A DNA stretch of 64,000 bases from Bacteroidaceae bacterium (GCA_045588345.1 JAZNDZ010000005.1:1138-65137); one strand, 5' to 3'. Shown: positions 45,858-64,000, counted from the stretch's first letter. The notes: generated from the letters alone by a model not told the origin. Numbers and translations: made by a program.

Positions 45858-45940
45858 AAGTTTTTATAACAACACACCGATTCTCTATCGGTAAGTCGAA
45901 AAATAACAGAGTTACCGATATGGAATCGAAAGATTTTGCT

Positions 45941-45948
45941 TACCTTTG
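45941..45948 (+). promoter_or_regulatory. -7 promoter box (TAnnTTTG)
   Basis: TACCTTTG lies 23 nt upstream of the ATG at 45971. Confidence 0.4.
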
Positions 45949-45970
45949 CATCAACTTAAATGATTGAAGT

Positions 45971-47383: not shown

Positions 47384-47546
47384 CACCTTTAAAATTTTGA
47401 TAATTTTTCAAATCTGAAATTGCTGACCTACATTACTAAATCAAGAGCTTGGAGTATGGAAAGTCTGGAAATCTTACATGAAGTAATCATGAATCCGGCC
47501 TTAGTATCGAAACATAAACCTATTACATTGATAATTAATGATGCGT

Positions 47547-47608
47547 TGCCGGGAATTTAATGAGTTGACACCCATAAATTCCCGTTGCTTATATTCACCA
47601 AAAGAATA
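47547..47608 (+). repeat. Copy B of the ~60-bp hairpin-containing repeat
   Basis: Contains a perfect 10-bp inverted repeat CGGGAATTTA (47550-47559) / TAAATTCCCG (47575-47584). It has the same orientation as copy A and lies between the convergent ATPase gene and the operon end. Confidence 0.6.
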
Positions 47609-47653
47609 AAATCAGTAAATAATCATATGTTTTTTAAATACAAAATCCATGTT

Positions 47654-48415
47654 TTAGAAATTAGGATCAATCAACGATGAAAAATCTGCAAATTTCCCGT
47701 CAGTATGATTTATAAGCCTTTCTAGTGCTTCTGCAATTTGTTCGTTAAGATACCTTATATTCCAATCGCTGTTGTAATACTTTGTATAATAGTACATATT
47801 TTCTATCATACGTATATACCTACTTTTGAAGTCTTCACATGCAAATGGATTTTCCCTATCAAAGTCAGCTTGTGCTTTTTTTAATATTGTTTGAAATTCT
47901 TGATATGAGCTTTCATATTTTTTTAGTGGTTCCTGCACAATAGAATATTCCTGCTTGAAATTAGCCGAATATATTCTGTCAAAATAAGATATGGCCTCTT
48001 TAACAGCGACTCTATCGTATCTTTCGTACAACCACCTATTTGCAAGTTTAACCATACAAGTGTCAACAAACCCCATATTCCCTTGCAGTTTAGCAATTTC
48101 TTTCTCTTTATTGCAAATAACTAACATAAGGGAATCTTTTTGTCGATTTGCTCTTACAATCATTCTCATTGAGTCTTGCTTTGCACTACGTCTTATGGAA
48201 TCTATGAGTTTAATGTTTGCATTAGCAATGCTATCACGATGCGACAATTCACGACGGAGAGAATCTGCTACATACTTTATACTATCAACATTTTCAATCT
48301 TATCTCTTTCAATTTTCCCTTTAAAAAGGGGTTGTCTTTGTTTCTCCTGGGCTGTAACATTAATATTTACAAGACACAGGAAAAGCATAATTGTTACTAA
48401 TTCTTTTATTTTCAT
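47654..48415 (-). CDS. Hypothetical secreted coiled-coil protein (operon gene 9)
   Basis: 253 aa with a signal peptide MKIKELVTIMLFLCLVNINVTAQ and charged heptad-like sequence. It starts 5 nt after gene 8. Confidence 0.6.
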   Translation of the reverse strand: MKIKELVTIMLFLCLVNINVTAQEKQRQPLFKGKIERDKIENVDSIKYVADSLRRELSHRDSIANANIKLIDSIRRSAKQDSMRMIVRANRQKDSLMLVICNKEKEIAKLQGNMGFVDTCMVKLANRWLYERYDRVAVKEAISYFDRIYSANFKQEYSIVQEPLKKYESSYQEFQTILKKAQADFDRENPFACEDFKSRYIRMIENMYYYTKYYNSDWNIRYLNEQIAEALERLINHTDGKFADFSSLIDPNF

Positions 48416-48420
48416 TTCCT

Positions 48421-49689
48421 CTAATTATTTTCGTACGGTATCAAAACATATCCTCTATCTGTACCTTTGCTTACAGAACTATCCTTACGATATACAACAT
48501 AAATAGTATATGTTGACGACTTACTTAAGTTACTCAATGTCACGGTTTTGTAATTATACAAGTTTGTACCTGATGAAGGGCTTCCTTTAGTTGTAGTATA
48601 ATTTGAACTAGTTGTAGGTCTTGAGTCCTTACCAACCATAACATAATCATGATCAGACTCACCATTACTGCGGATATAGAATGTAAATGTATCATACCCC
48701 TTGATTGTAAAATACATTGTTGCTTCAGAATTATCTTTATTATAGTTGCTAGAAGATTGATAAGCTCTATATAAAGTACTTGGTGATATCATACTAGTCC
48801 ATTGGTAATTAGTAGTGATATTTATTTCCTTTCGAGTATAAAACTCTTTTGCATTTCTGTAATATTCAGCTGCTTTTTGCTTTAATGCATCAGTCGTTTT
48901 TGCTCCATATCCATATTTAGATTTATTATTATCGTACTCTTGAATTTTACTATTTGCAGCAGACATCAATGAGTTGAATGACTCTTCTGTCATGTTACGA
49001 TAATTTGCCATCTCATTGACTTTTGATTCAACTTGATAATAATGCGAATTACCGATATTAGACTTTACAGCTGCTAGTTTATTTGTCAAATCTGTACAAT
49101 TTGACAAAGGATCCATTGTCCTATACTTTTCAGCATTCTGTATCTTTGTATTGGCATCGCTCACAGAATAGAATGTAGAATATGTCGCTACTTTCTTTGC
49201 TTCCTTATAGTTGCTAATAATCTGTTCTATTCTGCGAAGATCAGTCTCATATGAACCCGCAACTGCACTAGTTTCCCCATAATCAACTTTTAATGTTCTT
49301 AGATGTGCTATACGCTCAAGCATAGCTTTATGGTCAGACTCACGCCAAGTTGATGCTCTGAACTTTGCATGACTTAATTTCGTGAAGATAGGCAGATATT
49401 TCTGTACTAATGCTTTCGTTTGATAATCAATTTCTTCGTCAGTCATAAAAGCCTCACTCTTATATAGAGCAAGTTTGTCAACAACAACATTATATATCGA
49501 ATCATTGAAAGCAGTGTTCTCCGTTTCAGAAAAACCGTTGATATTAGCTTCAAGAGAAGATTTATGCAAATTATTTACCGTAACATCCACAGGAGGTGCC
49601 ACAATCGTGGGATAGAAAGCAAGAATACCCGCAATTGCAAATGCAATAACGATTCCTAGAATAAGGATTTTTTTACCAGTATTTTTCAT
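48421..49689 (-). CDS. Hypothetical N-terminally membrane-anchored protein (operon gene 8)
   Basis: 422 aa with one N-terminal TM (ILILGIVIAFAIAGILAFYP), a helical middle and a beta-rich C-terminal ~100 aa. Its start overlaps the gene 7 stop (ATGA). Confidence 0.6.
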   Translation of the reverse strand: MKNTGKKILILGIVIAFAIAGILAFYPTIVAPPVDVTVNNLHKSSLEANINGFSETENTAFNDSIYNVVVDKLALYKSEAFMTDEEIDYQTKALVQKYLPIFTKLSHAKFRASTWRESDHKAMLERIAHLRTLKVDYGETSAVAGSYETDLRRIEQIISNYKEAKKVATYSTFYSVSDANTKIQNAEKYRTMDPLSNCTDLTNKLAAVKSNIGNSHYYQVESKVNEMANYRNMTEESFNSLMSAANSKIQEYDNNKSKYGYGAKTTDALKQKAAEYYRNAKEFYTRKEINITTNYQWTSMISPSTLYRAYQSSSNYNKDNSEATMYFTIKGYDTFTFYIRSNGESDHDYVMVGKDSRPTTSSNYTTTKGSPSSGTNLYNYKTVTLSNLSKSSTYTIYVVYRKDSSVSKGTDRGYVLIPYENN

Positions 49690-51035
49690 AACATATCTCC
49701 TTGTTTTGTTTTTGACTTCTGTTGCACTTTAGGTTGACTTTTCTTTGTCGTACTTGTTGTACTAGTTTTCTTAGTCTTATGAGTCGTTCCTGCATCCTCG
49801 AGCGCTTTTATATAACCTTTCTTATCGCCATCAGGCTTAATAGTTATATCGAAATCATTAGGATGTGTATTAAAGTTACCAGAGAAAGGCTTATGACGAT
49901 TTTTGGTTATCGCAGCTACCAGTTCTTTGAATATTGCGGATTTGCCAAGAACATTCTCATAGGCCAGTATATCATCAAAACGTCTCTCATTCATTGCATC
50001 CCACAAACCTTTTAGCGGTTCGTGTTTTTCCATCTCAGTTCTGTTCCAGACATTATTATGGTCTATATATGAGATCGCTGCATCTACTAATTTTTCATCA
50101 CTATTACTCTCTGAACCTTTTGGTGCATAATTGTAGTTGCGTTTTTCTAACTCCTTAATGCGACTCTTCAAATCAGCATTTTCTTTCGTTAATTTGCCAA
50201 CTTCTTGATTATCTGCCTTACCTCCAATAAAGTCGTTTAAAGCATAACCACCGCAGATACCGAGCAGTAGGACTATTATAGAACATATCAGGCATGTAAT
50301 CCAGAATTTGCGAGTGAATGGCTTGAATCGCAAGTAATTTTTATCATTGCGTGTAACATATCCATTTTCTGTTACATAGCCTTTCACAGGCGAATTTTTC
50401 ATTTTTCTATTGCCAGATATCTTAATTGGGTAATAGCCCTCTTCATTTTTGAGAGGCAATAGAAACTCATATGCATATGTCTCCTTTACTAATTTTAATT
50501 GTACAGGTTGTGTTAAATTCAAATGACCAGAAATTGGTTCAAAACCTTCAGCATGAATTTTTACCCAAACATTATTAAGAGTTGCTTCGCTAATGCGTAT
50601 ATCTTCGTTTTTACTAATACGCTGCTTCGCTACATATAAGTCGTAATCAGTTACACGTTGACTCCATTCATCAACTACTTTTATGTAATTATAGTTAAGC
50701 ACTCTAACATATTGATTAGGTGTTGGAACAGAATACTTTGCGCCAGGCGCAATTATACTCTTCGTATGGATAGGCATATACCCATCTCTTCTCCATTCAA
50801 TATCTATCGTACCTCCTTCAATGGCATAAATCTGTCCAACAAAAGGTCGCTCTCCAATATAGGGAACAAAAGAATCTATTTTCCCAGGTGATTTTACTAC
50901 TACCATCGAGTATACTTTCTGGTCTGACAAGTTATCTCCTTGAAGGCATTTTAACTTCGATGAATTATCTAATAGGAATACACTCTTATAACTCTTATAA
51001 TATGATTGACACATATCTTTTAGAAGCTCAGACAA
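49686..51035 (-). CDS. Hypothetical bitopic membrane protein (operon gene 7)
   Basis: 449 aa. Beta-rich N-terminal ~235 aa, a central TM (FWITCLICSIIVLLLGICGGYAL), a coiled-coil (LTKENADLKSRIKELEKR), a C-terminal globular part and a Lys/Thr/Ser-rich tail. Confidence 0.6.
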   Translation of the reverse strand: MSELLKDMCQSYYKSYKSVFLLDNSSKLKCLQGDNLSDQKVYSMVVVKSPGKIDSFVPYIGERPFVGQIYAIEGGTIDIEWRRDGYMPIHTKSIIAPGAKYSVPTPNQYVRVLNYNYIKVVDEWSQRVTDYDLYVAKQRISKNEDIRISEATLNNVWVKIHAEGFEPISGHLNLTQPVQLKLVKETYAYEFLLPLKNEEGYYPIKISGNRKMKNSPVKGYVTENGYVTRNDKNYLRFKPFTRKFWITCLICSIIVLLLGICGGYALNDFIGGKADNQEVGKLTKENADLKSRIKELEKRNYNYAPKGSESNSDEKLVDAAISYIDHNNVWNRTEMEKHEPLKGLWDAMNERRFDDILAYENVLGKSAIFKELVAAITKNRHKPFSGNFNTHPNDFDITIKPDGDKKGYIKALEDAGTTHKTKKTSTTSTTKKSQPKVQQKSKTKQGDML

Positions 51036-51053
51036 TGTGTACTTTGCTCCTTG

Positions 51054-51494
51054 TCAATAGTATCTGAATGCACACTTTTCGCCATTGCTTTTTGTAGTGA
51101 TTCTAGATGCAGGTGCTGATTCATATGTTTTCGAAAGAAGTTGGGTTAATCTTTCATCATTTCTTTCGTTAGCAAGAATCTCTTTTTTAACAGCATCTAC
51201 TATTTCAACAAGTTCCTTTCCTGCAATATTAATTGAAGCAGGAACATATATCCATGCGCTAATACAATCAGTGATACGACCCTCAATAAGCGAAGCTACA
51301 GTTAATATGTGTCCAGTATCAATGCTTGTAAGCATTAGTACTGCTGATGAACCATCCAAGTTATCAATGTTCTCAAGGTCTTTGCGGATATCCCAGACGT
51401 TCTTAGTCCATACCTGGTCTCCGTTTATTTCAAATAAATCTGTATAACCCTGATTTATACGAACTATCTTTAAACCTAATTTATTATTATCCAT
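51054..51494 (-). CDS. Small soluble protein, possibly Roadblock/MglB-like (operon gene 6)
   Basis: 146 aa, starting 6 nt after the GTPase gene. The stretch LDGSSAVLMLTSIDTGHILTVASL resembles the Roadblock/LC7 core pattern. This is a weak assignment made by eye only. Confidence 0.55.
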   Translation of the reverse strand: MDNNKLGLKIVRINQGYTDLFEINGDQVWTKNVWDIRKDLENIDNLDGSSAVLMLTSIDTGHILTVASLIEGRITDCISAWIYVPASINIAGKELVEIVDAVKKEILANERNDERLTQLLSKTYESAPASRITTKSNGEKCAFRYY

Positions 51495-51500
51495 AGTTTG

Positions 51501-53147
51501 TTACTTTTTTAATATGTCAAACAAGTTCTTAATCTTTCCAGGTTTGTATCCATAAGACCTCTTAATGAGTGTTCTAACAACCGTTGCTGCTGTATCTTCT
51601 TTGAATTTACAGTAGTTCTGGAAACATACTGTACCTAACGTAAATGGCTGGATCTCCACATTACCACCATTTATTTCATTGTCCTTACAAATCTTCTTCA
51701 AACCATTATAGAAGCCTTGATAGTTCTCAGAGATATAGTTTCTCAGTTTTTCCTGCAACTCCTTGCCCACAGCTTTTGCTTTATCAACCTTAGTAATAAG
51801 GAGATATAAGCCATCTGTGTCCTTTTTGAAAATTCCTGTTCTCTGGATATAAGCCACAGCTGCTTCTAGATAGATATTTTGAGGCAGACCTTCATACTCT
51901 CTGTCCTCAGCACCATACTCTATCACAAAGAAATGAATCTTTCGGTTATCAGTTCTGTTATCAATTAATATGTTGGTCAATGTCTTAAGAACATTCTGCT
52001 GCTCATCTGTCAAAGGCTCTCCGGCGTCTTGCTTATACATACATCTAACAAGCTCACCTGCGAGGTCAATACATGTAATTGGATGCTCTTTTCTGTCTTC
52101 ATCTTCGAGAATAAAACCCATTTCATAAGTAGATGATATTGCGGTACCCTCAGGTAGTGTACCAACAGCACCATTTGTCTTGAATAGATTAGCCAATCTA
52201 TTCATATATCCGTAGCCCTGACAATCTGGGTCACGTTGCATGCTTTTTGCAACTCTACCACTATTAGCAGAACTCAAAATTGCACCTAATGCACAACTTT
52301 TACCAGATGACGGAATACCCCAAAAGTAAACTTCTGTACATGGAGACTTTGTAATCTTTGTTATTGGTTCAGGAGTTTGGAATTTCTGAGGAGTGATATT
52401 AGACATCATGTGTGCAATGAAATCGCCATCAATCCCCGCTCTTGAAAAGTCTGATATAATTCCGTTCTCCCACAACAAATTTGCAACCGTACCGCTAATG
52501 AAGTTATTATCCTCTGAGATAGCAGAAAGAAGGTCATCTACACTAATTTTGCCCGTATTAATGCAGTTGACTATTCTATCATATATAGCCTTCTCTGGAT
52601 TATTAATTCTAGCATCTGTACGTATTGCCTTAATCTGTCTTGCAAGAGCTCGGATATCAACTCCTAGATATTGTTCTCTGCGCAACTCTCTTAAAAGGCG
52701 TGTGGCTTCTGCAAGGTAAGTACTATTAGGATGATTGTCTACAAAATTTTGCAGTTCAGTAATACTTCCTTTGTTAACGCTATCCCAAATCTCATCACTG
52801 GCGCCACTTTCCGCCAATTTCTGCAGTTCCTCAATTCTATCACGGGCAGAACTTCGATATTCGCCTTCTGGATACGAATCAAGGTAATTTTGGTATGCCT
52901 CTTCTGTATTAATGCGTTTGGCTTCTTCCCAGTCTTCCTCTTCGCAGTTCGCAAATTTCTCAGCGACCTGATCCTGTATAGACTTTTTTACAGGTGTACC
53001 TGCTTCTCGAGCCGCATCTCGAAACTCTTCAAAACTCTTTATTCCGGCCTGTTTCAAGGCCTTTACTAGGTCATCGATGTTGTTGCTGTACTCATCGATA
53101 TTATCAAATATAGTATCTAAATCAATCATATTATTGGAATTTTTCAA
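51501..53147 (-). CDS. P-loop GTPase with Ras-like G1/G3/G4 motifs and a helical N-terminal extension (operon gene 5)
   Basis: 548 aa. G1 GIPSSGKS, G3 CIDLAGE and G4 ITKVDK appear in canonical order and spacing. The N-terminal ~270 aa are helical, with two similar segments (YQNYLDSYPEGEYRSSARDRI and LQNFVDNHPNSTYLAEATRLL). Confidence 0.7.
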   Translation of the reverse strand: MKNSNNMIDLDTIFDNIDEYSNNIDDLVKALKQAGIKSFEEFRDAAREAGTPVKKSIQDQVAEKFANCEEEDWEEAKRINTEEAYQNYLDSYPEGEYRSSARDRIEELQKLAESGASDEIWDSVNKGSITELQNFVDNHPNSTYLAEATRLLRELRREQYLGVDIRALARQIKAIRTDARINNPEKAIYDRIVNCINTGKISVDDLLSAISEDNNFISGTVANLLWENGIISDFSRAGIDGDFIAHMMSNITPQKFQTPEPITKITKSPCTEVYFWGIPSSGKSCALGAILSSANSGRVAKSMQRDPDCQGYGYMNRLANLFKTNGAVGTLPEGTAISSTYEMGFILEDEDRKEHPITCIDLAGELVRCMYKQDAGEPLTDEQQNVLKTLTNILIDNRTDNRKIHFFVIEYGAEDREYEGLPQNIYLEAAVAYIQRTGIFKKDTDGLYLLITKVDKAKAVGKELQEKLRNYISENYQGFYNGLKKICKDNEINGGNVEIQPFTLGTVCFQNYCKFKEDTAATVVRTLIKRSYGYKPGKIKNLFDILKK

Positions 53148-54152
53148 TTACATAGTGAATGAACCGTAATCGCCTTCGTTTGAAGAGGAATCATCATCCA
53201 TACTAAATGTCATATCATCTTCAGGGCGGTCAATTTTGCTAGTTTTCTTAGACTTTTTGCGTTTGGGTGTATATGAGTCACCTTCAGAGCCAATGAGTCT
53301 AAATGTACTTTTGGTATTTCTACTTTGAATGATGTACGGAAACAAAAGCAATATATATAGTAGGACTCCAATACCAATTGCAAGCATTGATGGGGTACCC
53401 ATTGTTGTGTACACAGAGCGTAGATTATTTAGGTTCTCCTTAGCCGTTGTTACACTTGGATCAGAGGATGAGAATGGTTCGACTCCATTGGGTTCGTCTG
53501 ACATAATTTTACCAGAGAATTCACTTAGCGAGTTATTCCAATTTTCAATAGCGCCTTCAATCTTTTTGATGTTGCCAATCATAAAGACATTCCATACAGT
53601 CGCCCCTGATGCATTATCAATCCACTGAACCGCTGATTCTTTCAAAGCATTATAATTATCAGCAATCAATTGCAGTCTAAGAGCCTCTACTTCGTTAGTT
53701 CTATGAACAGTCTTTGTTTTATTTTGAGCCAATTTCTTGTCATACTCCTTTATTCTATTATTTGCGTAGACCTCATAAGATTCAAACATACCCTTTGTTG
53801 TCTTTATAGACTCTGAGAAAGTCTTTTCTACTTGACTTCGGTTATCAAAAACTGTCCAAAAGTGAGCATATGGGACCATTACCGCAATAAAGGACAAAGG
53901 TGCAGAGAAGAAAAGAATACGCTCAAAAACGAACTTTCTGCAAAATTTCTCATCAGCCCCTTTCAAAATTTGAGGTATGATGAAAAATATAATCAGTACA
54001 AGATTGATTATCAACACGCCCAATCCCGCATACAGGAAATCTCCATCAGTCAAATATGTGATTCCCATAAATGAGACATAACTGATAAATATCAGTGCAA
54101 TAAATGCAATGATATGTCCCCATGAAAATTTTAATGTTTCATTAATTGCCAT
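53148..54152 (-). CDS. Multipass membrane protein (operon gene 4)
   Basis: 334 aa. Three N-terminal TM helices, a ~150-aa loop, a fourth TM (MLAIGIGVLLYILLLFPYII) and a charged tail. Its stop abuts the gene 5 start. Confidence 0.65.
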   Translation of the reverse strand: MAINETLKFSWGHIIAFIALIFISYVSFMGITYLTDGDFLYAGLGVLIINLVLIIFFIIPQILKGADEKFCRKFVFERILFFSAPLSFIAVMVPYAHFWTVFDNRSQVEKTFSESIKTTKGMFESYEVYANNRIKEYDKKLAQNKTKTVHRTNEVEALRLQLIADNYNALKESAVQWIDNASGATVWNVFMIGNIKKIEGAIENWNNSLSEFSGKIMSDEPNGVEPFSSSDPSVTTAKENLNNLRSVYTTMGTPSMLAIGIGVLLYILLLFPYIIQSRNTKSTFRLIGSEGDSYTPKRKKSKKTSKIDRPEDDMTFSMDDDSSSNEGDYGSFTM

Positions 54153-54161
54153 ATATCGTCC

Positions 54162-57140
54162 TTATTTATTTTCAGGTAATAATTTTTCAAGTTCACTTAT
54201 CTTTCTCTTATAGGATTCTATTAGTTTTCTAATAGAATCGTAATCTGTTCCATCATTCTCATCTTCAGATGTTGGCGGAGTTGTTTTACCATTATCATTT
54301 CCCGGATCCTTAGGACTTGGTTTGTTTCCAGGATTATGTACATCTTGGCCTGGCGTTTTACCAGTATCGCCAGGATTATCTCCATCTACATTGCCACCTG
54401 TTTCTCCTGAATTCTCATTGACTGGTGATTCTCTATCGATTGGGTTATTACCAGAACCTCCATCCACTACATTAGGATTTGTAATTTCGTTATTGGCATT
54501 ACCATTTGTGTCTGGGAGTTCTGGTATCACACCTGTTTTCAACGCTATTAGAGCATCGTCAACTTGAATCATAGGTGGCATATAATCAGATGCTCGCTCA
54601 CCAGTTGCCTGTAAAATATGAAGTACTTCTGTCACCGAGATATCTTGGTTTAAACTCTTCATTAATGCTACCGTACCTGCAACTATTGGAGCAGCCATAC
54701 TTGTACCATCAAATACGGCATATTCATTGACGGGTATAGAACTATAAATGCCCTTACCTGGAGCAGAGATGTTAGAACCTCTACCATAATTGGTGAAGTC
54801 TGTACCTTTTATTTGCCTATCAACAGCAGCGACATTTACGGTGAAATTCGTTCGATTCTCAGGAGGAATGTTTGCGAGTATATTGTCATTACCTACTGCA
54901 AAAACGATTATCACATTATGCTCATTTGCGACATTAATAATACGTTTCCACACACGCTCTTCGTTTTTGAATTGAGTTTTAGCAATATAATCCTGGTCTG
55001 GGAGAGGTAGTATATCTAGTCCTCTGAAATTCGGACCAATAGATACATTTACAACATTCGCTCCATTGTGAATGGCGTACATTATTCCGCTTGTTACTGA
55101 CGAAAATGTACACATACCATTGTCAAATACCTGTATTGGCATTAGTTTACATTTAGGCGCAACTCCAGATACGCCTTTGTCAAACATCTTATCAGAGCCA
55201 ACTGGCAATCCAGCTACGTGTGTACCATGTCCCTGGCCAACACTTAATCTATTATCCTGAGTAAACACATTGTAAGGGCTTACAATTCTTCCTTTAAGGA
55301 TATCATGTGTTGCATCAATACCATCATCAACAACTGCTACGGTGATATTTGGGCTTCCCTTAGTAATTTCCCAACCTTCTTCTACATCAATTGCATCAAG
55401 ATGCCAGCCTATATTTGCTGTATCCGTACTAATATCGCCAACAATGGTAAAAATTGACTCATCAACTATGAAAAACTCATAGTTTGGAAGCTGTGCATTC
55501 AAACCCTCTCTAATAGCGTCTCGCATATTTTCAGAAATAAGAATCTGTATCATTGTCACATTCTTATCAAAGCCAATGACTTGACACTCATTTTCTGAAT
55601 ACATCTTAGAAAGGTCTGATATAAACTGTTCAAGGTCTACATTCGCGTCTTCAAAGTATATATTTAGCCTATTTGCAACAATATCTGGCGTCCCAGGATT
55701 TGAAACAATAGGAGGCTCTTTGCCGTCATCCCCTACGATAGGTGCTACGACATTATTATTAGGCAACTTGCCATCATCACCAACAATACCCTTGACAGGT
55801 CCATTGTTATCAATAACACGCCCGTCATTTGTCTCAATTACAGGTGTAGGCTCTACTGGGCCACCGCTTTCACATGATCTTAAAAGCCATGACAATAAGA
55901 ACAGCAAAAGTAATAGGAGTAACAACCACAATAGCCACTTTAAACATCCTTTACCTGTAAACCAAGCCCATAAGCGCTTATACCATGGTATGTCCTTTTC
56001 ATATTGAGCTGTAAATGTTGTATCACCATTCAAAGTGTAATCAATCGGTGACTTGTCCCAACCTATAAACTTATAACCTCGTTTAGCCTTAATTGCCGGG
56101 GTATTATCATTATTGAATATTGAACCATAAGGCAGTGTAAAGCAATCTGTACCCTCAATTGAACCGTGTTCACCAGCGACAAATTGACATGTTACATTAT
56201 CTCTATTGAAGATAGCAGTGAAAGTTGCATCCTCATAGATAGCTCCCAAATCGGGCTGAATATCCCAGCCAACGAAAGAATAACCGTTATTAGGTACAGC
56301 CGATGGAATTTGCATTACATCTAGATATGTCCCCTTCTCTATGGAGCATTCAGTTGTTCCACTCAATGAGCCGCCAACACCTGCTAAGAAGGTAATATGC
56401 ACATTTTCTTTTTCTGCGGGAACATCATCTTCAATAGGTGCCTCATCATATAGTGCTGTAAAAGAAAGAAGTCCATTAACCTTCATACCCAATGGATTTG
56501 GATCCCATCCCTTAAATACATATCCCTTCTTAGGAGTTACGGTAGGCAGATCAATATTTGATAATGTGGCACCATCAGGGCGACTAACAACCCCAGCTAA
56601 TTTATCTGTAAGAGTGCCATTTTCTCCTACAATAAAACGTACTTTGTGATTGCTTTGAATCTTTAAATCATGTATTACTGCACCCTTCACGACATGTTTG
56701 TGAGAGTCAGGCGACATACCCCAAGCAACTACTACTACTTTTTCATCATAGCAGAACATAAAGTCCTCATCAATATACTTGAGGGCACCTGTTAGAATCT
56801 GCTTATCCTCACCTGTCAGATTTTTACGTACTTTTTCATATGCTGCAATTGTTTTTTCTTTTATCGCAGCATACTTAGCCTTATCAACATCTGATAAATC
56901 ACTATATGCACACGGTGTATGATTCCACTCGCGCACATACCATAATATCTGATCCTCATCTGAATATATAGGATGAGCTAGAAAGTCTCTATATTGAGGC
57001 TCTACATTCTTCTCAACTACTGAATATACGCTGTCAAATCTCTTGTACAGCGGATCGCGACCGATTCCTTGGAAATCGGTAAAATCAGTAACCTCTGTGT
57101 AACAGAGTTTTCTCTTGCCATATAGAGTATGTTCTGCCAT
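54162..57140 (-). CDS. Membrane-anchored subtilisin-like (S8) serine protease with an N-terminal domain and three Listeria-Bacteroides-type repeats (operon gene 3)
   Basis: 992 aa with no signal peptide. Repeats GYVFKGWD, GYSFVGWD and GYKFIGWD; TM WLLWLLLLLLLLFLLSWLL; S8 triad contexts VAVVDDGID, GHGTHVAG and GTSMAAPIVAG; then a low-complexity N/G/P-rich tail ending in a coiled coil. Confidence 0.8.
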   Translation of the reverse strand: MAEHTLYGKRKLCYTEVTDFTDFQGIGRDPLYKRFDSVYSVVEKNVEPQYRDFLAHPIYSDEDQILWYVREWNHTPCAYSDLSDVDKAKYAAIKEKTIAAYEKVRKNLTGEDKQILTGALKYIDEDFMFCYDEKVVVVAWGMSPDSHKHVVKGAVIHDLKIQSNHKVRFIVGENGTLTDKLAGVVSRPDGATLSNIDLPTVTPKKGYVFKGWDPNPLGMKVNGLLSFTALYDEAPIEDDVPAEKENVHITFLAGVGGSLSGTTECSIEKGTYLDVMQIPSAVPNNGYSFVGWDIQPDLGAIYEDATFTAIFNRDNVTCQFVAGEHGSIEGTDCFTLPYGSIFNNDNTPAIKAKRGYKFIGWDKSPIDYTLNGDTTFTAQYEKDIPWYKRLWAWFTGKGCLKWLLWLLLLLLLLFLLSWLLRSCESGGPVEPTPVIETNDGRVIDNNGPVKGIVGDDGKLPNNNVVAPIVGDDGKEPPIVSNPGTPDIVANRLNIYFEDANVDLEQFISDLSKMYSENECQVIGFDKNVTMIQILISENMRDAIREGLNAQLPNYEFFIVDESIFTIVGDISTDTANIGWHLDAIDVEEGWEITKGSPNITVAVVDDGIDATHDILKGRIVSPYNVFTQDNRLSVGQGHGTHVAGLPVGSDKMFDKGVSGVAPKCKLMPIQVFDNGMCTFSSVTSGIMYAIHNGANVVNVSIGPNFRGLDILPLPDQDYIAKTQFKNEERVWKRIINVANEHNVIIVFAVGNDNILANIPPENRTNFTVNVAAVDRQIKGTDFTNYGRGSNISAPGKGIYSSIPVNEYAVFDGTSMAAPIVAGTVALMKSLNQDISVTEVLHILQATGERASDYMPPMIQVDDALIALKTGVIPELPDTNGNANNEITNPNVVDGGSGNNPIDRESPVNENSGETGGNVDGDNPGDTGKTPGQDVHNPGNKPSPKDPGNDNGKTTPPTSEDENDGTDYDSIRKLIESYKRKISELEKLLPENK

Positions 57141-57144
57141 ATAC

Positions 57145-59988
57145 TTAATTATTTATATATAGGGTACTGCTAGTGTCAATTATGTCTTTAATAGCTGCAT
57201 TTGCTACTGAATCAACATGGGAGATATCACTGGCGAATAGTAATCCTATCGTAATAAAGTTCTCCCAACGCTGGTAACTATCCCAGAATGGCAACTTTTT
57301 TAGTGTCGCTAAATCAATGCGAGAATTGTTCATCTCATCTCTTGATTGATCAAGAGCCGAAAGGACTTCTAATAGAGGCTGAGGCTTTATATTCGAACTT
57401 GATGCTGCCGGGGACAAATCAATCTCCAAATGGCATGATTTTGCCTTTTGTGCAATATTTGCCATATCCTTTTCTGACATATATTCTCGACCTACTGTGC
57501 TAACAAAGTTATTTAATGTCAAAGAGGCATAATCAGCTATTGCATTAGGGAGTCCATTTCTATCAAAAACATCGTAATATCTATTTATCTTATCCGAAAT
57601 AGCTCGCTTAACACCAAGTTTGTTCAATAATGTTAGAATCATGAATGCTATCTCATCTGCATGAGGAAGCACATCGCCCATATTTTTTACTTGTTCGTTA
57701 ATATGGTTATTCCAATACTCAATGATGTGTTTAGCGATAACATCGGGGACAGTGGCTAGTAATTCACTTTCATCAGATATTACATCCTCTAATGTGACAC
57801 CCATTTCGGCAAAGAACGATTTTAATTCACTCTCTTCCTTATTGTATCTCTTGCAGAGTTTCTGGATATTAGTAGACTTATCATCGTTAATATCAATCTC
57901 ACAGAATGCACGAATCATCTTAATAGATGACACGCTCTGCGGTTCCTCAATATGACGAACTATGATGTCGTATGCAATGGTTCGAATGTCTGCAGACGAT
58001 ACCATCAAATCATCAATGATACGACCAAATCTTTCAGGTTTTTCACCAAAAGCAAATTCAGTCCTTAGTTTAATGTCTCCTGTAATTTGGCGTATTCTCA
58101 CATTGTTTTCTTCCTTGTCATCAGACTCATAGTAAACGCTTAACCTATTGATGATTTCATCGCGTATTTCTATAAGTTGCTGCAAGTATCGTTCGTGTCT
58201 TGCGTCATCAAGCACTTCGGCTATGGCATCAAGATTCCTAATGATAGCCTTAGAACCATCATTGTTAATTGTTGCTACATCATCCCAAGCTTGTTGAGGT
58301 TTAGCAAAATGCTTTTTAACAAAGGGATTTGCTAGGAAACTTTCTCTCAAATCGTCAAAATATCCCGGGTATTCATCGAATATATGGACACTACTCTCGG
58401 TAGTTCCCTTTTGCTCATTATATCCGTCAAACACTTGGTTTTTAGAGGACCAATAAAAGTCTCGAAGCAAATATACATTTTGGAAGCAAGGAGATGTAAA
58501 TGAGCCTCCTAGAGACACCCATTCATCAAGCCACTTCTCGGGCTCAATAATTTTTGGAATTGTAGTATTGAACCTTGCCCAGTGGTTGTCTAACTTTGAG
58601 GCTGACTCAGGCGTATCGTTCTTCGTTTTTTCAAGGTCAATGTTGAACTTTGTACAAATCAAAAACAGAGGTGCAATACCATTTGTCCTTGATAGTACAT
58701 TGGCTCTAACATCAGGTGTTTCACCGATATTATCCTCAATCCAATTATGTATAGATGCTCCAATTGTAGGTTCAGTCTTTTGGTCATTATGATGACAGAA
58801 GAGTACTGAACTAATCTTCAAAGAACGAGAGTACTTATTAAATAAATAGGCGACTTTTCCTCTTCGAAGAATCGTGGGCAGAACTTCTCCCAACTGCTGT
58901 TCCTTGATTTTTTCTCGGGATCGTGCACCCGGAAAATCCAATAAATCAATCTTCTTCAGGAATTTTCTTTCTGTTGCGATATCCTCTGGCAATACAAAAG
59001 TTAATTCTCCGATTAAAGCAGAGAGGTATGCTTTACTAAAATCTTTTGCAATAAGTTCGCCTTCACGATTATATACGTCTGTATAAAGGACATCATCATT
59101 AGACTCTTTATGAATACCACATACCGAATCAAGCCAATCAATCTTAAGCAATGTACCTTTATCTCTTAGTACTGCGTCGAACGGCACATACACTTCAGTT
59201 AAAAAGTCTAATTTTTTGTACTCATTGATAAGGGTACTGAACAATCTGTTTAACTCTGGATTATTATTCCATATAAGGCCAAAAATATTAACCCAGTTAT
59301 CGCTTGCTACATAACTAATAATAGGGGCAATAATTTTGCAAAAATTTGACTTGCAAATATTTGCAGCATTATTTCCAATGATATCATTGAGATAATCACA
59401 AATATCTCTTATGTCATCCTCAGTAATAATATTGTGAGCTGGCGACTTCCCACTCCACAATTCTTTCATTTGAGACAGAGAATTATCTATATCAGTGTTG
59501 AGCATAACACTATCCGTGTTAATCTTAACATCGTTATAATAAGAGTCTGCCAATAAAAGAATGATATCGACTACTGACAAGTTTGTGATTTTCACATAGT
59601 CAGCCATCTTCTTATTACTTTGCCTAATTGTAAAGCGAGTTATAACACCAGTAGATTCCTGTTTGGTATTATTGCCTCCGCTAGGATTAATCTCATCAAT
59701 AAAACTATAGCGAACGCCATTATTCTCAATAACAAATGGAGCATCTGGCGTTGACAGAAGGCTACTCATCAGATAGGATTTTCCGACCTGACTCTCACCA
59801 TATGCTGCAGCAGAACAGTTCTCCGAGAGAGCTTCTCCAATCCTTCTCAGCTTTCTGCGATAATTCTTAAACACTTCCCTTGGGAATGAGTCTTTCTCGT
59901 ATTTATCTGCCCAAGCAACTGATTGCTTGATAACTTCGAGGTTAGTAATTATATCTCTTGTCATATATGCCAAATTCAATTTATTCAA
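57145..59988 (-). CDS. SrfC-like large P-loop GTPase (dynamin-like) (operon gene 2)
   Basis: 947 aa. Walker A/G1 GESQVGKS (residues 64-71), candidate G2 GVITRFT, G3 LLDFPGARSRE (DxPG as in dynamins), candidate G4 CTKFNID, and a long helical C-terminal half. Confidence 0.65.
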   Translation of the reverse strand: MNKLNLAYMTRDIITNLEVIKQSVAWADKYEKDSFPREVFKNYRRKLRRIGEALSENCSAAAYGESQVGKSYLMSSLLSTPDAPFVIENNGVRYSFIDEINPSGGNNTKQESTGVITRFTIRQSNKKMADYVKITNLSVVDIILLLADSYYNDVKINTDSVMLNTDIDNSLSQMKELWSGKSPAHNIITEDDIRDICDYLNDIIGNNAANICKSNFCKIIAPIISYVASDNWVNIFGLIWNNNPELNRLFSTLINEYKKLDFLTEVYVPFDAVLRDKGTLLKIDWLDSVCGIHKESNDDVLYTDVYNREGELIAKDFSKAYLSALIGELTFVLPEDIATERKFLKKIDLLDFPGARSREKIKEQQLGEVLPTILRRGKVAYLFNKYSRSLKISSVLFCHHNDQKTEPTIGASIHNWIEDNIGETPDVRANVLSRTNGIAPLFLICTKFNIDLEKTKNDTPESASKLDNHWARFNTTIPKIIEPEKWLDEWVSLGGSFTSPCFQNVYLLRDFYWSSKNQVFDGYNEQKGTTESSVHIFDEYPGYFDDLRESFLANPFVKKHFAKPQQAWDDVATINNDGSKAIIRNLDAIAEVLDDARHERYLQQLIEIRDEIINRLSVYYESDDKEENNVRIRQITGDIKLRTEFAFGEKPERFGRIIDDLMVSSADIRTIAYDIIVRHIEEPQSVSSIKMIRAFCEIDINDDKSTNIQKLCKRYNKEESELKSFFAEMGVTLEDVISDESELLATVPDVIAKHIIEYWNNHINEQVKNMGDVLPHADEIAFMILTLLNKLGVKRAISDKINRYYDVFDRNGLPNAIADYASLTLNNFVSTVGREYMSEKDMANIAQKAKSCHLEIDLSPAASSSNIKPQPLLEVLSALDQSRDEMNNSRIDLATLKKLPFWDSYQRWENFITIGLLFASDISHVDSVANAAIKDIIDTSSTLYINN

Positions 59989-59991
59989 CCA

Positions 59992-62900
59992 TTAAAAATC
60001 AAATGCTCCAGAATCCAACCAATATTGATCATCAACACCCAAACTCTGAATGTGAATCTCAATACTGCTATCAGACAATTCAACTCCATTTCTATCTTTG
60101 ATAGAGCTAATAGTTAGATTCTCCTTATCTTCAGGATCACGGTCTATCGTAATCTTAAATGGCATTCGTTTTTTGAAACCCTCTACCTCGTCATTCGCCA
60201 TTGACTGAACAGCTGCATCTGAAGGATTATACCCGTTATCCAATGCTTTATTACGAATTTTGTTTACCAATTTCATATAGTTAAAGTCAATGGAATACAG
60301 CGCCCTTGACGGATAACTGGTCAAGCCGAATTGACGAACATTTAAGATATCAGGGATTCGGCTTACAGTCAGTTCTCCCTGCAACTTATCAGGAGTAATT
60401 AAGTACTCAATAGGCTGGCCATCTCTTGATGCTTCAATATAGTTGACCGTAGACTTCAGATTGCTCTTGAGTTTCTCCAAATTAATGGAGAACTTATCAA
60501 GATTAGAGTACTCGGAAGCATAATGGCCAATTACACCTCCCATAGCCACTATGGTCTTTGGATTGGTGATATATCCAGTGTTTTGACAGAAAGGGTACCA
60601 ATCACCAACATAGTAGTTGTTTAGAGTTATAAGTCGATTTGGCGATACAGGATAGTACTTTAAGAAGATGTTTCGTATTGCTGGTAACGATGACGGTCTT
60701 CCTGACAGTAAAATCACATCACAGGAATAAGCAAAGAACATTGTGGCAATCTTCTTCAAAAGTGGTTCAAACTCCTTTGAAATAATATCGGCTACGAACT
60801 CCTTATTGTACTCCCAAGTAAGAGATGTGATGTCTATTCCCATCCTTCTCTTAAAGTCGTCTATTACGCGTTGGTTAGGTTGGTTAACCTTAAATACATC
60901 GTCATACTTAACTATACAACTACAGCTATCATTTGATGCCAACTCCAAGAAATATGTCATCAACGGGATAGAATACTGTATATTGAAATCGCGCCTTGCA
61001 ATGCGATCGGCAATAGTTTGACCATTATAATCTGGGCCAAAGAAATTCTTAATCTTTTGCCTATACTGTATTGGGTCAAGACTACGAAGAGCCTTGCGGA
61101 AAGCACTATGCTTTTCGTCAAGCAACATCACATTCTTGACTAAGGCCTTGAGCATATCATCGCCTGCAAAATAGAAACTATCGTAAAACTTTGGATCCGG
61201 GGTAATGGTAGTTAAGTCACCTTTTGTGAAAGAGTATTCGCTAATCATCAAATCGGATGTTCCTGCTCCAATATCCAATGAACCAACTGTAAGTGTAGGT
61301 TGCTGATTACCATCCACAACCTTTCCGTACAAATTAAAGAATTCGCTACATACGCCTTTGTATTTATGGCCTACCTCGCCATAAATATACACGAGTTGAG
61401 CGCAAGTCGCTTCATCATAATACCACGAGCCATCATTATCCTTCATTGAACGTACAGCTGGTATAATATCGATGGCAGGAGCTCCATTGCCGTATATAAA
61501 TCTGCCATACAATGTAACAGCATCTTTAGCACATTTCACAAGGGCCTCTCTCTCAATCTTGGACATTGCGGTCGGGCAAGTAATAATTATTCGCTTTATC
61601 TTGCGTGGAACTGTTTTCCAGCCAACATCAATTCGATATGGCTCACTATTAATCTGGCTATTAGCCTGCGAGAGCATCTCCAAGAAGGCAAAGGTCATAA
61701 GGCTCCTTCTAGAGTAATGTGAAGAGCGCCCACCATCAGTACCTGTCACATCGATTCGTCCATCGCTCATAAGATTGGAACTAATGCCTCGAATATTAAG
61801 TATGTGATTAGACTCTTCACCTGGAAGAACTAAAAATTCCCACTCCTTTTTGCTTGGCTTATTATCCCACAAGTATCTTTTAGGACTTGAGTATGTTGAC
61901 AATGTCTCCTCTTCCCATGCTGAACTACAAGCGCGATGTATAAGGGCGCTTGCTTCCTGACCAAGTCTGATAAAGCTAGGATACACAAATTGCTTGCTAT
62001 CATTAATGCCAAAAGAGCCGAAATCAACTCTTCTAAAGGCTAAACGCATGTCGAAAGGTTCGTTGTAAGAACGGATACGAACTTTGTCATCTTTTTCCTG
62101 TAACAAATCCGTGTAATCAATTAAACTTAAAGGCTTAACTTGATTAAAATTCGAATTATCTTCAATCAATAATGCAGTAGTTCTAGAATTGCCAATATCT
62201 ATTACCATATCAACATTTCTAACTTCGACATCTTGGTCTTTGTACAACTTTATAGCTGGGAATAATTTGTTTTGAGCCAAATAATTCACCAAGAAAATGT
62301 AAGATGCAATGTAAGACATCTTGTGAGTATTTGCGCCCTTGATTTGCGACACACTGCTGAGTGTAGGATGAACCAATTTGAAAATATACTCATCAATATA
62401 GCTCCAATTCTCCTTTGGGGAACAATAGTCCATCAAGAAAAACTCGTTGTCGCATAACGCAAAATTCATCTCAGAGCAATACTGGTCAGGGAATACCGGA
62501 AACTCATTATATTCATCAGACGAATAACCAGCTCTTGTATCAAACGCGAGAATAACATCGTATTCAAGTTCGGTTTTACCTTCACTTCTAGGCACAAACT
62601 TAACTCGAGACCAGTTCATTGGGCTAAACTTAAAGCGCTTCTCTGTTCTTTTGAAAAAGTATGGAATAGGAATCCATTTATTCTCAAAATTCTTTAATGC
62701 GTTATGTTTGTCAGAGAAAGTCAACTTATATAGCTCTCCTCTGACTCCGTTGCACATTTCATCATCAATCTTGAGAGAATTGATTCCGTCATTTCGCAAT
62801 TCTATAGGATCATATTCGATTGTTGGGTCGTTCAGATAGCCTCCATCGAATAATTCGTGCTTGTCGTAAAACAAAACATTATCATCGGTAGCAACTTCAT

Positions 62901-63042
62901 GGGCAAGGTCCAATCTCCATTGCCCATTACTTGTGTCATACCATTCTCGGAACCACATTTTAAATTTATCCTGAGTATTCAATTTAAGTCTGAATGTCAG
63001 CAATTGAATACCTGAATTCGCTATCAATGAGAAGCTGTCCAT
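59992..63042 (-). CDS. SrfB-like protein with an actin/Hsp70 (ASKHA) ATPase core (operon gene 1)
   Basis: 1016 aa. The N-terminus SLIANSGIQLLTF resembles the SrfB family start as I recall it. ASKHA motifs occur in order: VIDIGNSRTTALL (phosphate 1), ITCPTAMS, DEATCA, LDIGAGTSDL (phosphate 2) and ILLSGRPSSLPAI (adenosine). Confidence 0.7.
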   Translation of the reverse strand: MDSFSLIANSGIQLLTFRLKLNTQDKFKMWFREWYDTSNGQWRLDLAHEVATDDNVLFYDKHELFDGGYLNDPTIEYDPIELRNDGINSLKIDDEMCNGVRGELYKLTFSDKHNALKNFENKWIPIPYFFKRTEKRFKFSPMNWSRVKFVPRSEGKTELEYDVILAFDTRAGYSSDEYNEFPVFPDQYCSEMNFALCDNEFFLMDYCSPKENWSYIDEYIFKLVHPTLSSVSQIKGANTHKMSYIASYIFLVNYLAQNKLFPAIKLYKDQDVEVRNVDMVIDIGNSRTTALLIEDNSNFNQVKPLSLIDYTDLLQEKDDKVRIRSYNEPFDMRLAFRRVDFGSFGINDSKQFVYPSFIRLGQEASALIHRACSSAWEEETLSTYSSPKRYLWDNKPSKKEWEFLVLPGEESNHILNIRGISSNLMSDGRIDVTGTDGGRSSHYSRRSLMTFAFLEMLSQANSQINSEPYRIDVGWKTVPRKIKRIIITCPTAMSKIEREALVKCAKDAVTLYGRFIYGNGAPAIDIIPAVRSMKDNDGSWYYDEATCAQLVYIYGEVGHKYKGVCSEFFNLYGKVVDGNQQPTLTVGSLDIGAGTSDLMISEYSFTKGDLTTITPDPKFYDSFYFAGDDMLKALVKNVMLLDEKHSAFRKALRSLDPIQYRQKIKNFFGPDYNGQTIADRIARRDFNIQYSIPLMTYFLELASNDSCSCIVKYDDVFKVNQPNQRVIDDFKRRMGIDITSLTWEYNKEFVADIISKEFEPLLKKIATMFFAYSCDVILLSGRPSSLPAIRNIFLKYYPVSPNRLITLNNYYVGDWYPFCQNTGYITNPKTIVAMGGVIGHYASEYSNLDKFSINLEKLKSNLKSTVNYIEASRDGQPIEYLITPDKLQGELTVSRIPDILNVRQFGLTSYPSRALYSIDFNYMKLVNKIRNKALDNGYNPSDAAVQSMANDEVEGFKKRMPFKITIDRDPEDKENLTISSIKDRNGVELSDSSIEIHIQSLGVDDQYWLDSGAFDF

Positions 63043-63140
63043 ATTTTTTACTTTTAACTAAACTTCAATTGTTGTGATTTTTTTTGCATCTCCTAACAGG
63101 AGATAGATTATTTTACCTAACAAATCGTAAGTTTATATGC

Positions 63141-63167
63141 AAAAAAGGAGCTCGCTCCCGAACTCCT
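63141..63167 (-). terminator. Terminator after the integrase gene, upstream of the operon
   Basis: The minus strand reads GGAGTTCG-GGAG-CGAGCTCC (one mismatch) followed by TTTTTT, 24 nt after the integrase stop. Confidence 0.55.
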
Positions 63168-63190
63168 CTAAAAAGCAGCAATCATAGCTT

Positions 63191-64000
63191 TCATAATAAT
63201 TTTAGTATTTTCTTATTGGCTTTGTCTATTACATGCGTTTCCAAAGAGGCCAGATATATCTGTGTAGTACTCTCAGAGTCATGTCCCATAGCTTCACTAA
63301 TAACAGATATTGATATTCCTTCATTTCTTGCAATACTTGCCCACGAATGGCGCGCAACATACATTGTCAATGGTAAGTTCAACCCCAACTCTCGACCAAT
63401 CGCTTTTAAGTTATGATTTATAAGTGTTAAAGCATTATGATACTGTTTTCGAGTATTCTTGGTAGGGTCTTTTATAATCGAAAGAAGAAATGGAGAAGTC
63501 AAGGATGAGTATTGATCAACAATCTTTTGCATACAATCTTCCCAATGGATAGATAGTAGTTGCCCTGTTTTCTTTCTTCTGTATGTCAGAACATCATCTG
63601 TCAGATTCTTCTTTTGCAAGTACGCTATATCCACAAATGACATACCTCGTGTATAGAAACTGAACAAGAATATATCACGAGCGAAACTCTTTGATGGAGA
63701 ACAACTCAGATCCAAATCTTTTAATTTGCGAACAAACTTCAACGGGATAGCTCTCTTAATAGTTTTTTCAGATGATGTAAACACCTTTTTGAAAGGATTC
63801 TTATTCTCCACATAACCATCTTCTACAGCATTATTATATATCGCCCGTAAGCGTTTCATATAGAAAGAGATTGTGTTGGGAGCCAATCCCTTCGCTCTCA
63901 AATGATACTCATACGAAATAAGCATTTCCGAATCAATACCATCAAAGCATACATCTACACCTTCCCTAAACTTCCTAAAACTATTAAGAGTTGCTTGATA
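63191..64000 (-). CDS. Tyrosine-type site-specific recombinase/integrase; N-terminus lies off the window
   Basis: The frame stays open upstream of the track Met to base 64000 (...YQATLNSFRKFREGVDVCFDGIDSE-MLISYEYHL). A SAM-like domain is followed by the catalytic region ARHSWAS...GH...TQIYL. Confidence 0.85.
   Translation of the reverse strand, partial: YQATLNSFRKFREGVDVCFDGIDSEMLISYEYHLRAKGLAPNTISFYMKRLRAIYNNAVEDGYVENKNPFKKVFTSSEKTIKRAIPLKFVRKLKDLDLSCSPSKSFARDIFLFSFYTRGMSFVDIAYLQKKNLTDDVLTYRRKKTGQLLSIHWEDCMQKIVDQYSSLTSPFLLSIIKDPTKNTRKQYHNALTLINHNLKAIGRELGLNLPLTMYVARHSWASIARNEGISISVISEAMGHDSESTTQIYLASLETHVIDKANKKILKLL

Follow-up and report, generated by a model that had tools for sequence, protein, structure and literature searches.

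The DNA analysed here, referred to below as the window, is a 64,000-nucleotide stretch from a Bacteroidaceae bacterium (GCA_045588345.1, JAZNDZ010000005.1:1138-65137), and our subject is the gene on its minus strand that encodes a protein of the SrfC family. It lies between srfB, directly upstream, and a gene for an S8-family (subtilisin-like) protease downstream. A single open reading frame (ORF) runs through 57145..59988 and has 947 codons when counted from a TTG. Nearly all of the 120 homologues listed are 935-940 amino acids long and start with MT[RK]DI..., their initial methionine being equivalent to codon 9 of the ORF, so the comparison places the true start probably at the ATG at 59964, giving a protein of 939 amino acids. 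Residue numbers below refer to this protein; the numbering of the 947-residue form is obtained by adding 8. The TTG is located 3 nucleotides past the srfB stop codon and the ATG 27 nucleotides past it, while the S8 protease gene begins 4 nucleotides beyond the srfC stop. The three genes are clearly arranged as a tight operon, but the 3-nucleotide gap from which a preliminary description made from the sequence derived translational coupling of srfC with the upstream gene holds for the TTG only and is lost with the likely ATG. The coordinates of all features are collected in Table 1.

The assignment to the SrfC family, which the preliminary description had made, is correct and virtually certain. 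In a hidden Markov model search the protein matches Pfam PF10139 (Virul_Fac, 'Putative bacterial virulence factor') with E=3.6e-101 and 340.3 bits, far above the gathering cut-off of 28.1, and the match covers residues 31-848, corresponding to profile positions 18-810 of 878. When sub-regions of the protein are searched at E<=10, PF10139 is the only Pfam family returned; an NCBIfam scan matched no SrfC or SrfB model. Using tblastn, genes annotated as 'virulence factor SrfC family' are found in Runella, Klebsiella, Mesorhizobium and Cereibacter and on other plasmids, including rhizobial ones, at 23-28% identity. Among the scored candidates, SrfC relatives with E<=1e-5 make up 2306 protein clusters, and a scan of one genome per species gives at least 570 loci, of which the best 80 are nearly all from Bacteroidota, together with Fibrobacterota. 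The carriers include the cultivable strains Bacteroides muris NM69_E16B and Phocaeicola paurosaccharolyticus JCM 15092. Conservation was evaluated on 77 homologues of 25-85% identity (mean column identity 31%) drawn from an exhaustive search with 977 representative clusters.

The nucleotide-binding motifs of SrfC are conserved far beyond chance. In the P-loop, GESQVGKS, residues G56, S58, Q59, G61, K62 and S63 are unchanged in all 77 homologues (GxSQxGKS), and N93 is invariant as well. The candidate for switch I (G2) follows the consensus E[SA]-T-G-x-[VI]-[TS]-R-F and resembles, as we see it, the GIVTRRP motif of dynamin; T105 would be the residue that coordinates Mg2+. In the G3 segment D340, D343, P345 and G346 are found in 77 of 77 sequences, and the string DLLDFPG is identical in three proteobacterial SrfC proteins. 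DxPG is the form that G3 takes in dynamin, mitofusin and BDLP, and an invariant DxPG (rather than hhhhDE) combined with a switch-I threonine is a hallmark of kinase-GTPase/TRAFAC proteins. The motif strings given in the preliminary description are all present at their places (GESQVGKS at 64-71, GVITRFT at 114-120, LLDFPGARSRE at 349-359 and CTKFNID at 445-451 in the numbering of the 947-residue form), and those proposed as G1, switch I and G3 occupy topologically correct positions and hold residues that are invariant in the 77 homologues. Two of its details need adjustment. GVITRFT is indeed a conserved motif, but the invariant threonine is the one just before the heptapeptide (ES-T-GVITRF), the inner one being Thr in 69 sequences and Ser in 8. 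CTKFNID is correctly positioned for G4, but it is not a canonical [NT]KxD motif and reads TxFN with an invariant asparagine.

At this G4 position, N441 is conserved in 77/77 sequences of the clade and the threonine in 75/77, while the lysine is present in only 28/77. Proteobacterial SrfC proteins instead carry T[KM]xD: TMCD in Klebsiella, TMFD in Mesorhizobium and the canonical TKFD in Cereibacter. Because T[KM]xD is kept there, a dynamin-type G4 appears to be ancestral in the family, with the Bacteroidota clade having fixed Asn in place of the Asp that specifies guanine. Replacement of Asp by Asn at G4 is the classic change that converts GTPases to the use of xanthosine triphosphate, and in EF-Tu (D138N) and Ras (D119N) it moves the specificity towards xanthine nucleotides. 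With an invariant Asn where guanine would be specified by Asp, SrfC of this clade may use a nucleotide other than GTP. The NTPase site itself is very likely functional. Apart from G4 and an overall identity of only 25-28%, the proteobacterial proteins of Salmonella, Xenorhabdus, Klebsiella and Haemophilus are alike in belonging to PF10139, in the GxSQxGKS, E[SA]TGxVTRF and DLLDFPG motifs, in the spacing between P-loop and G3 and in the location of srfC immediately downstream of srfB.

An AlphaFold2 (AF2) model of SrfC calculated on the alignment of homologues has a predicted local distance difference test score (pLDDT) of 90.1 and a predicted template modelling score (pTM) of 0.82. When the full-length model is compared with the PDB using Foldseek, the top 26 matches all belong to the dynamin superfamily. 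The best are SynDLP (E=4.5e-7) and BDLP (E=1.1e-5), for which the alignments take in both the G domain and the stalk, and further matches comprise dynamin-1, Fzo1, Campylobacter DLP1/2, Drp1, Mgm1, LeoA (E=0.024), MxB and Mfn1/2, with a template modelling (TM) score of 0.49 normalised to the target for Mfn1. In BFVD, a library of predicted viral structures, a Klosneuvirus GTPase of the dynamin family ranks first (E=8.6e-4), with an AIG1 GTPase coming next. The comparison of predicted structures proposed in the preliminary description thus places the dynamin superfamily alone at the top of two independent libraries. No search assigned the protein to an ABC or AAA family, and the candidates for G3 and G4 are both located on strand ends of the nucleotide-binding fold.

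The architecture of the model resembles that of BDLP from Nostoc (PDB entry 2j69), SynDLP (PDB entry 9em7) and mitofusin/Fzo1 in its N-terminal helices, large G domain and long helical bundle, in addition to the DxPG form of G3 and a switch-I Thr that is followed by Arg. SrfC differs from these proteins in that no sequence similarity to them is detected, in its non-canonical G4, in the lack of a paddle or transmembrane segment, in its obligatory pairing with a protein carrying ASKHA motifs and in an insertion of about 200 amino acids in the G domain. The insertion consists of a helical part (131-250) and a β part (257-324) as assigned by DSSP in the AF2 model. It is present in Klebsiella SrfC too, where the P-loop and G3 are spaced identically. 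A mostly helical region after the G domain had been anticipated in the preliminary description and is there, although with about 405 residues (535-939) instead of about 500. By fold and architecture, SrfC is thus predicted to be a TRAFAC/dynamin-superfamily-like large NTPase and a very divergent member of this group, and we regard the dynamin-like fold as highly probable.

Several observations weigh against this assignment. Normalised to the query, the full-length matches have global TM-scores of 0.1-0.25, low values of the kind expected for proteins with several hinged domains. Modelled by itself (residues 44-520, pLDDT 87), the G domain finds nothing significant with Foldseek; its best match is Fzo1 with E=0.024 and a TM-score of about 0.2, and the search lists Toc34, BDLP, EngA/B and GIMAP at low probability together with AAA+ Msp1 noise; the insertion of about 200 amino acids probably degrades this match. 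Pfam Dynamin_N does not match SrfC even at E<=10. A search of all PDB chains with SrfC and with the profile of 77 sequences returned spurious matches only (nanobodies and designed repeats) and no solved GTPase, and hhalign of the SrfC profile against Escherichia coli K-12 RdcA/YjdA aligned the P-loop only, this single-sequence template being too weak. A Kyte-Doolittle scan of SrfC over 19 residues, with amphipathic elements left aside, peaks at 1.46 and nowhere reaches 1.6, so the paddle that the preliminary description considered beside a stalk is not recovered as a membrane-binding or transmembrane segment on this scale. Finally, the [NT]KxD pattern of G4 is absent from this clade, where Asn replaces the guanine-specifying Asp. 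With this non-canonical G4, the label of GTPase given earlier is unproven.

These points could also be read to mean that SrfC acts as a P-loop ATPase or serves as a scaffold that binds nucleotide without catalysis, and that its likeness to dynamins is superficial and stems from a generic P-loop domain combined with long helices. The low global TM-scores, the non-significant search with the G domain, in which AAA+ Msp1 chains occur, and a G4 without Asp (and with Lys in 28/77 only) would fit this interpretation, as would weak matches of AAA_22 to 8 of 27 members (best E=0.024). MMR_HSR1, the generic model of TRAFAC GTPases, matches the G domains more often and more strongly, although still weakly (12 of 27, best E=1.1e-5), and the invariant DxPG and switch-I Thr, the T[KM]xD motif kept by proteobacterial members (TKFD among them) and a set of top 26 PDB and top BFVD matches that is exclusively dynamin family likewise argue for a dynamin-like protein. 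We therefore consider this alternative very improbable.

The upstream gene, described before as encoding an ASKHA protein, is identified as srfB by Pfam PF07520. Its motifs DIGNSRT (residue 282), DIGAGTxD (residue 590) and LSGRP (residue 779) are strongly conserved in 78 homologues and, judged by eye, would fit the phosphate-1, phosphate-2 and adenosine motifs of ASKHA proteins. The sequence of SrfB shows no match to the actin, Hsp70 or MreB families in Pfam or among PDB sequences, the only trace being MreB_Mbl with E=0.12 in Pfam; a search of all PDB chains with SrfB returned nothing.

The protein encoded downstream of srfC is predicted to be bitopic. Its S8 domain looks active, with the catalytic Asp, His and Ser conserved in 69 homologues, and we infer that this domain is periplasmic because a single transmembrane helix separates it from a cytoplasmic SrfA-N domain. 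The first ~145 residues of the protein are, from profile comparisons, homologous to the N-terminal domain of SrfA: NCBIfam NF040486 (SrfA_fam) matches 9 of 19 N-termini of the S8 proteins (best E=5.9e-8), and an hhalign comparison based on these N-termini gives a co-linear alignment to Klebsiella SrfA (9-144 to 9-153, Prob 85%, E=6e-6) that ends at the conserved WG motif. A separate srfA gene encoding SrfA-N, a transmembrane segment and a lipocalin-like C-domain is absent upstream of srfB, where a tyrosine-recombinase fragment is found, and the lipocalin-like C-domain is missing from this locus altogether. The fusion of SrfA-N to a downstream S8 protease distinguishes the locus from proteobacterial srfABC, as do its hosts (Bacteroidota and Fibrobacterota) and its accessory genes, which differ entirely and comprise no von Willebrand factor A (vWA), Lol-like ABC or SUMF1 gene.

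A related arrangement is seen in Alphaproteobacteria, where the operon order is trypsin-like protease, srfA, srfB, srfC. The Cereibacter trypsin-like protease has a SrfA-N-like N-terminus (hhalign Prob 93%, E=2.5e-7) followed by a transmembrane helix; the Mesorhizobium protein is of the same size and has a transmembrane helix, its likeness being one of layout and not of profile comparison. This suggests that SrfA-N is an adaptor with interchangeable periplasmic domains that are lipocalin-like, trypsin-like or subtilisin-like. An AlphaFold3 model in a 2026 preprint depicts SrfA-N as a platform that binds SrfB and then SrfC (bioRxiv 10.64898/2026.09.18.752743); that preprint makes no mention of proteases, Bacteroidota srf loci or NTPase folds.

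The order srfB, srfC, S8 peptidase, 334-amino-acid protein (p334), 548-amino-acid protein (p548) is kept in about 80 loci of Bacteroidota and Fibrobacterota at 27-91% identity, as seen in the best 80 of the at least 570 loci and in four others. Among 86 SrfC loci, SrfB is present in 84, the S8 protein in 80, p548 in 73, p334 in 59 (at the same position) and the 422-amino-acid protein p422 in 34. SrfB, SrfC and p548 have neither a transmembrane helix nor a signal sequence, while the S8 protein has one transmembrane helix, p334 has four, and p449 and p422 have one each. No match to p334 was found in the Pfam, NCBIfam and PADLOC family scans. In p548 the motifs GIPSSGKS, GE and TKVD follow one another, and GxPxSGK, GE and [T]KxD are conserved in 68 homologues; this protein is a candidate second GTPase whose G4 would be canonical. 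Neither Pfam nor the PDB assigned anything to p548, and it aligns with the SrfC profile at the P-loop only. The next gene is split by an in-frame TGA into ORFs of 146 and 449 (p449) amino acids, whereas its homologues are single ORFs of 570-635 amino acids. The stop falls on a Gly that is conserved in the homologues (RYYGQG) and the flanking residues are identical to those of the closest homologue, so that the TGA is either an error in sequencing or a nonsense mutation from GGA. We also compared p334, p548, p449 and p422 with the neighbours of Klebsiella srfABC (a hypothetical protein, vWA, ABC, SUMF1 and TerB) and rejected them as homologues; the sole signal, p449 against TerB (Prob 66%), extends over the transmembrane helix.

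Table 1. Features of the srf locus and related genes; residue numbers of SrfC refer to the 939-amino-acid protein.
Feature	Coordinates	Strand	Basis or remark
srfC-like gene	57145..59964	minus	ATG start at 59964 gives 939 amino acids; mechanical ORF to TTG at 59988 gives 947
G1 / Walker A P-loop GESQVGKS, residues 56-63	59776..59799	minus	Translation; between β1 (50-56) and helix 59-70 in model
Switch-I / G2 candidate TGVITRF	59632..59652	minus	T105, R110, F111 invariant (n=77); T105 in loop just before strand 108-112
SrfC-specific insertion of ~205 residues (131-335), between switch I/β2 and G3 strand	58960..59574	minus	DSSP of AF2 model
G3 / Walker B DFPG, D343-G346, context DLLDFPGAR	58927..58938	minus	C-terminal end of strand 339-343 in model
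G4-position motif TKFN, T438-N441	58642..58653	minus	After strand 433-437 in model
All-α C-terminal stalk/bundle, residues 535-939	57148..58362	minus	DSSP of AF2 model, pLDDT mostly 85-95
srfB, 1016 amino acids	59992..63042	minus	Pfam PF07520, E=2.3e-218, 728 bits; directly upstream of srfC
Predicted bitopic SrfA-N / S8 subtilase fusion, 992 amino acids	54162..57140	minus	Pfam Peptidase_S8 E=2e-42, plus Flg_new repeats
SrfA-N-like domain, residues 1-145 of S8 protein	56706..57140	minus	NCBIfam, hhalign; ends at conserved WGM motif
Transmembrane helix of S8 protein, residues 402-420	55881..55937	minus	Kyte-Doolittle 2.76; basic residues on N-terminal side
S8 subtilase catalytic domain, residues 598-847	54600..55349	minus	Pfam stretch
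p334, conserved 334-amino-acid protein with four transmembrane helices	53148..54152	minus	59/86 loci
p548, conserved 548-amino-acid soluble protein	51501..53147	minus	TPR/BamD-like N-terminal part, C-terminal P-loop domain
Cassette gene of ~600 amino acids with one transmembrane helix	49686..51494	minus	Interrupted by in-frame TGA at 51054-51056
p422, 422-amino-acid N-terminally anchored protein	48421..49689	minus	Peripheral cassette member, 34/86 loci
Tyrosine-recombinase ORF, 244 amino acids	63191..63925	minus	Directly upstream of srfB
Alphaproteobacterial trypsin-like proteases beside srfA-srfB-srfC	L089:656-2524; L088:791-2449

The G+C content of the window falls from ~0.49 to ~0.36 at roughly 45 kb and remains low to its end, and because of this drop the stretch ~45000-64000, which holds the whole srf cassette, is taken to be a horizontally acquired island. 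The tyrosine-recombinase ORF at its right side is probably truncated, because its N-terminal Arm-binding part is missing and little of the SAM-like domain remains. Homologous recombinases occupy the same position, directly upstream, in 7-10 other srf loci, the flanks of which otherwise vary. A terminator-like hairpin is located at 63146-63159 between the recombinase and srfB; this interval contains no convincing inverted repeats of an invertible promoter. A search for σ70 promoters and terminators gave nothing convincing, the σ70 consensus being unsuited to Bacteroidota. At the left edge of the low-GC island is a gene for an ATPase_2/DUF234-type AAA ATPase (45971-47383, plus strand), a homologue of which flanks the srf cassette in another locus (L005). 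Housekeeping genes (PrmA, a MatE transporter, FKBP and a nitroreductase) are found in the left part of the window. The window also contains a gene on the plus strand for a GH20 β-hexosaminidase of 1270 amino acids with a C-terminal MucBP domain (31829-35641), and this gene and the three ORFs without a Pfam match that come after it (35780-40040) are probably a glycan-utilisation cluster unrelated to the srf finding.

A cassette that resides on a low-GC island bounded by a tyrosine-recombinase gene and that has recombinases upstream and variable flanks elsewhere, as expected of a mobile element, could belong to a conflict or anti-phage system. SrfB, SrfC and p548 would then be NTP-dependent sensors or switches, and infection or damage to the envelope would activate the S8 protein as a suicidal or protective effector. 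IetAS, a defence pair of an ATPase and a subtilase, provides the model. As in IetA/IetS, an NTPase is genetically coupled to an S8-family peptidase here, and the S8 domain weakly matches the PADLOC subtilase and IetS models and NCBIfam IteS. The Runella homologue adjoins BREX pglZ/brxL and McrBC, and the exchange of S8 and trypsin-like proteases on one adaptor domain is typical of conflict systems. These matches of the S8 domain are, however, far below the family cut-offs (28 bits against 900), the S8 protein is membrane-anchored and carries SrfA-N, and the NTPases are SrfB and SrfC instead of the AAA-type ATPase IetA. A second comparison is with the dynamin-like NTPases LeoA/LeoBC of enterotoxigenic E. 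coli (ETEC; 'Eleos'/Dynamins defence) and Bacillus subtilis DynA, which are encoded in small operons on mobile islands and for which roles in vesicle release or phage resistance have been proposed. LeoA is among the structural matches of SrfC, but PADLOC yields no match to the Leo models, and the partners of SrfC are SrfB, the S8 protein and membrane proteins rather than dynamin-like paralogues.

Other results speak against a defence function. In PADLOC-DB v2, SrfB has no match, and the one match of SrfC, to LmuA at E=0.0064, is noise. In a survey of 142 ORFs lying upstream in 51 loci, defence matches are sporadic (BrxL, and PD-T4-6, mad3/6 and MkoA in one locus each), most of the neighbours are housekeeping genes and tyrosine recombinases are the sole recurrent ones. 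Moreover, the protease domain is predicted to be periplasmic and not cytoplasmic, and the 5-8 genes, many of them for membrane proteins, make the cassette a large one. On balance a conflict system appears unlikely.

The reading that we consider probable is that the product of the gene is the SrfC subunit in a variant of SrfABC found in Bacteroidota, in which a cytoplasmic SrfB/SrfC NTPase pair is docked on a membrane-anchored periplasmic protease. In this reading srfC is co-transcribed with srfB, which encodes an ATPase-like protein with ASKHA motifs, and with the gene of the bitopic SrfA-N/S8 protein. On the cytoplasmic side of the inner membrane, SrfA-N would provide the site where SrfB and SrfC come together. 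Binding and hydrolysis of a nucleotide by SrfC would drive dimerisation of its G domains and a rearrangement of the stalk, as in proteins of the BDLP/mitofusin type, and these movements would have the effect of organising, clustering or remodelling the membrane in the surroundings of the anchored protease and of the cassette's other membrane proteins. In this way, turnover of NTP in the cytoplasm would be coupled to a periplasmic or envelope output.

It counts against this proposal that two of its parts are inferred, namely the complex of SrfB, SrfC and SrfA-N at the membrane, which still seems rather likely, and the remodelling or organisation of membrane as the actual activity of SrfC, which is a tentative suggestion and falls somewhat short of an even chance. 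The genetics of the family bear on it only indirectly: swarming is poor in a srfC mutant of Salmonella (PMC4219756), and lysates with Xenorhabdus SrfABC have cytotoxic and insecticidal activity, for which all three components are needed (PMC6950479).

The activity of these lysates is also the starting point of a different explanation, in which SrfABC is an exported tripartite toxin as proposed for Xenorhabdus and Haemophilus. SrfC would be released, for instance inside outer-inner membrane vesicles that also carry its anchored partner, and act on eukaryotic or competitor cells; by extension, a dynamin-like activity could drive the formation of vesicles, as with LeoA in ETEC. The 2026 preprint argues for export mediated by outer-membrane vesicles (10.64898/2026.09.18.752743), and LeoA, which is tied to the vesicle-associated release of toxin, is one of the structural matches. 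Yet SrfC and SrfB are devoid of signal peptides and transmembrane helices, and their nucleotide sites are under strong purifying selection, which fits enzymes that act in a place supplied with NTP. Bacteroidota and Fibrobacterota from the environment and among gut commensals commonly carry the cassette, and the lipocalin-like SrfA C-domain and the Lol, vWA and SUMF1 genes of the 'toxin' loci are absent here. An exported toxin is thus quite improbable, and the docking of SrfB and SrfC on the anchored protease remains the preferred interpretation.

A broader version of this docking model is more speculative, and we give it less than a one-in-two chance by a clear distance: SrfB (ASKHA) and SrfC (dynamin-like) might form a widespread cytoplasmic engine of two NTPases that SrfA-N couples across the inner membrane to interchangeable periplasmic effectors, lipocalin-like in Enterobacteria, trypsin-like in Alphaproteobacteria and a subtilase in Bacteroidota. 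This would represent a new class of modular trans-envelope machine or immunity system, in which the base specificity of Bacteroidota SrfC has been switched by the D-to-N change at G4.

For about 25 years SrfABC has carried the annotation 'virulence factor', and no mechanism has come with it. In the literature searched, neither SrfC as a dynamin-like NTPase nor the link between SrfA-N and proteases is described, and searches for SrfC or SrfB with GTPase, dynamin, Hsp70 or defence retrieve only the Xenorhabdus toxin papers, the Salmonella swarming screen and the SrfA-N preprint. What is known is the SrfC family, mechanistically uncharacterised; the srfB-srfC-[SrfA-N::S8] architecture and the Asn in G4 are specific to the clade and do not appear in the literature searched. 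The cassette is not a categorically new system, and the locus looks like a rewired SrfABC in which a membrane-anchored protease replaces the usual SrfA. A vague annotation is in this way turned into testable hypotheses, which build on a dynamin-superfamily architecture with a conserved site, the pairing with a protein carrying ASKHA motifs and SrfA-N domains whose periplasmic parts differ by phylum; they are that a nucleotide drives assembly at the inner membrane, that a periplasmic protease is controlled and that the nucleotide specificity is altered. Since Bacteroidales of the human and animal gut commonly carry the cassette, its function is of relevance to the biology of the gut microbiome and could concern envelope remodelling, vesicle production or defence.

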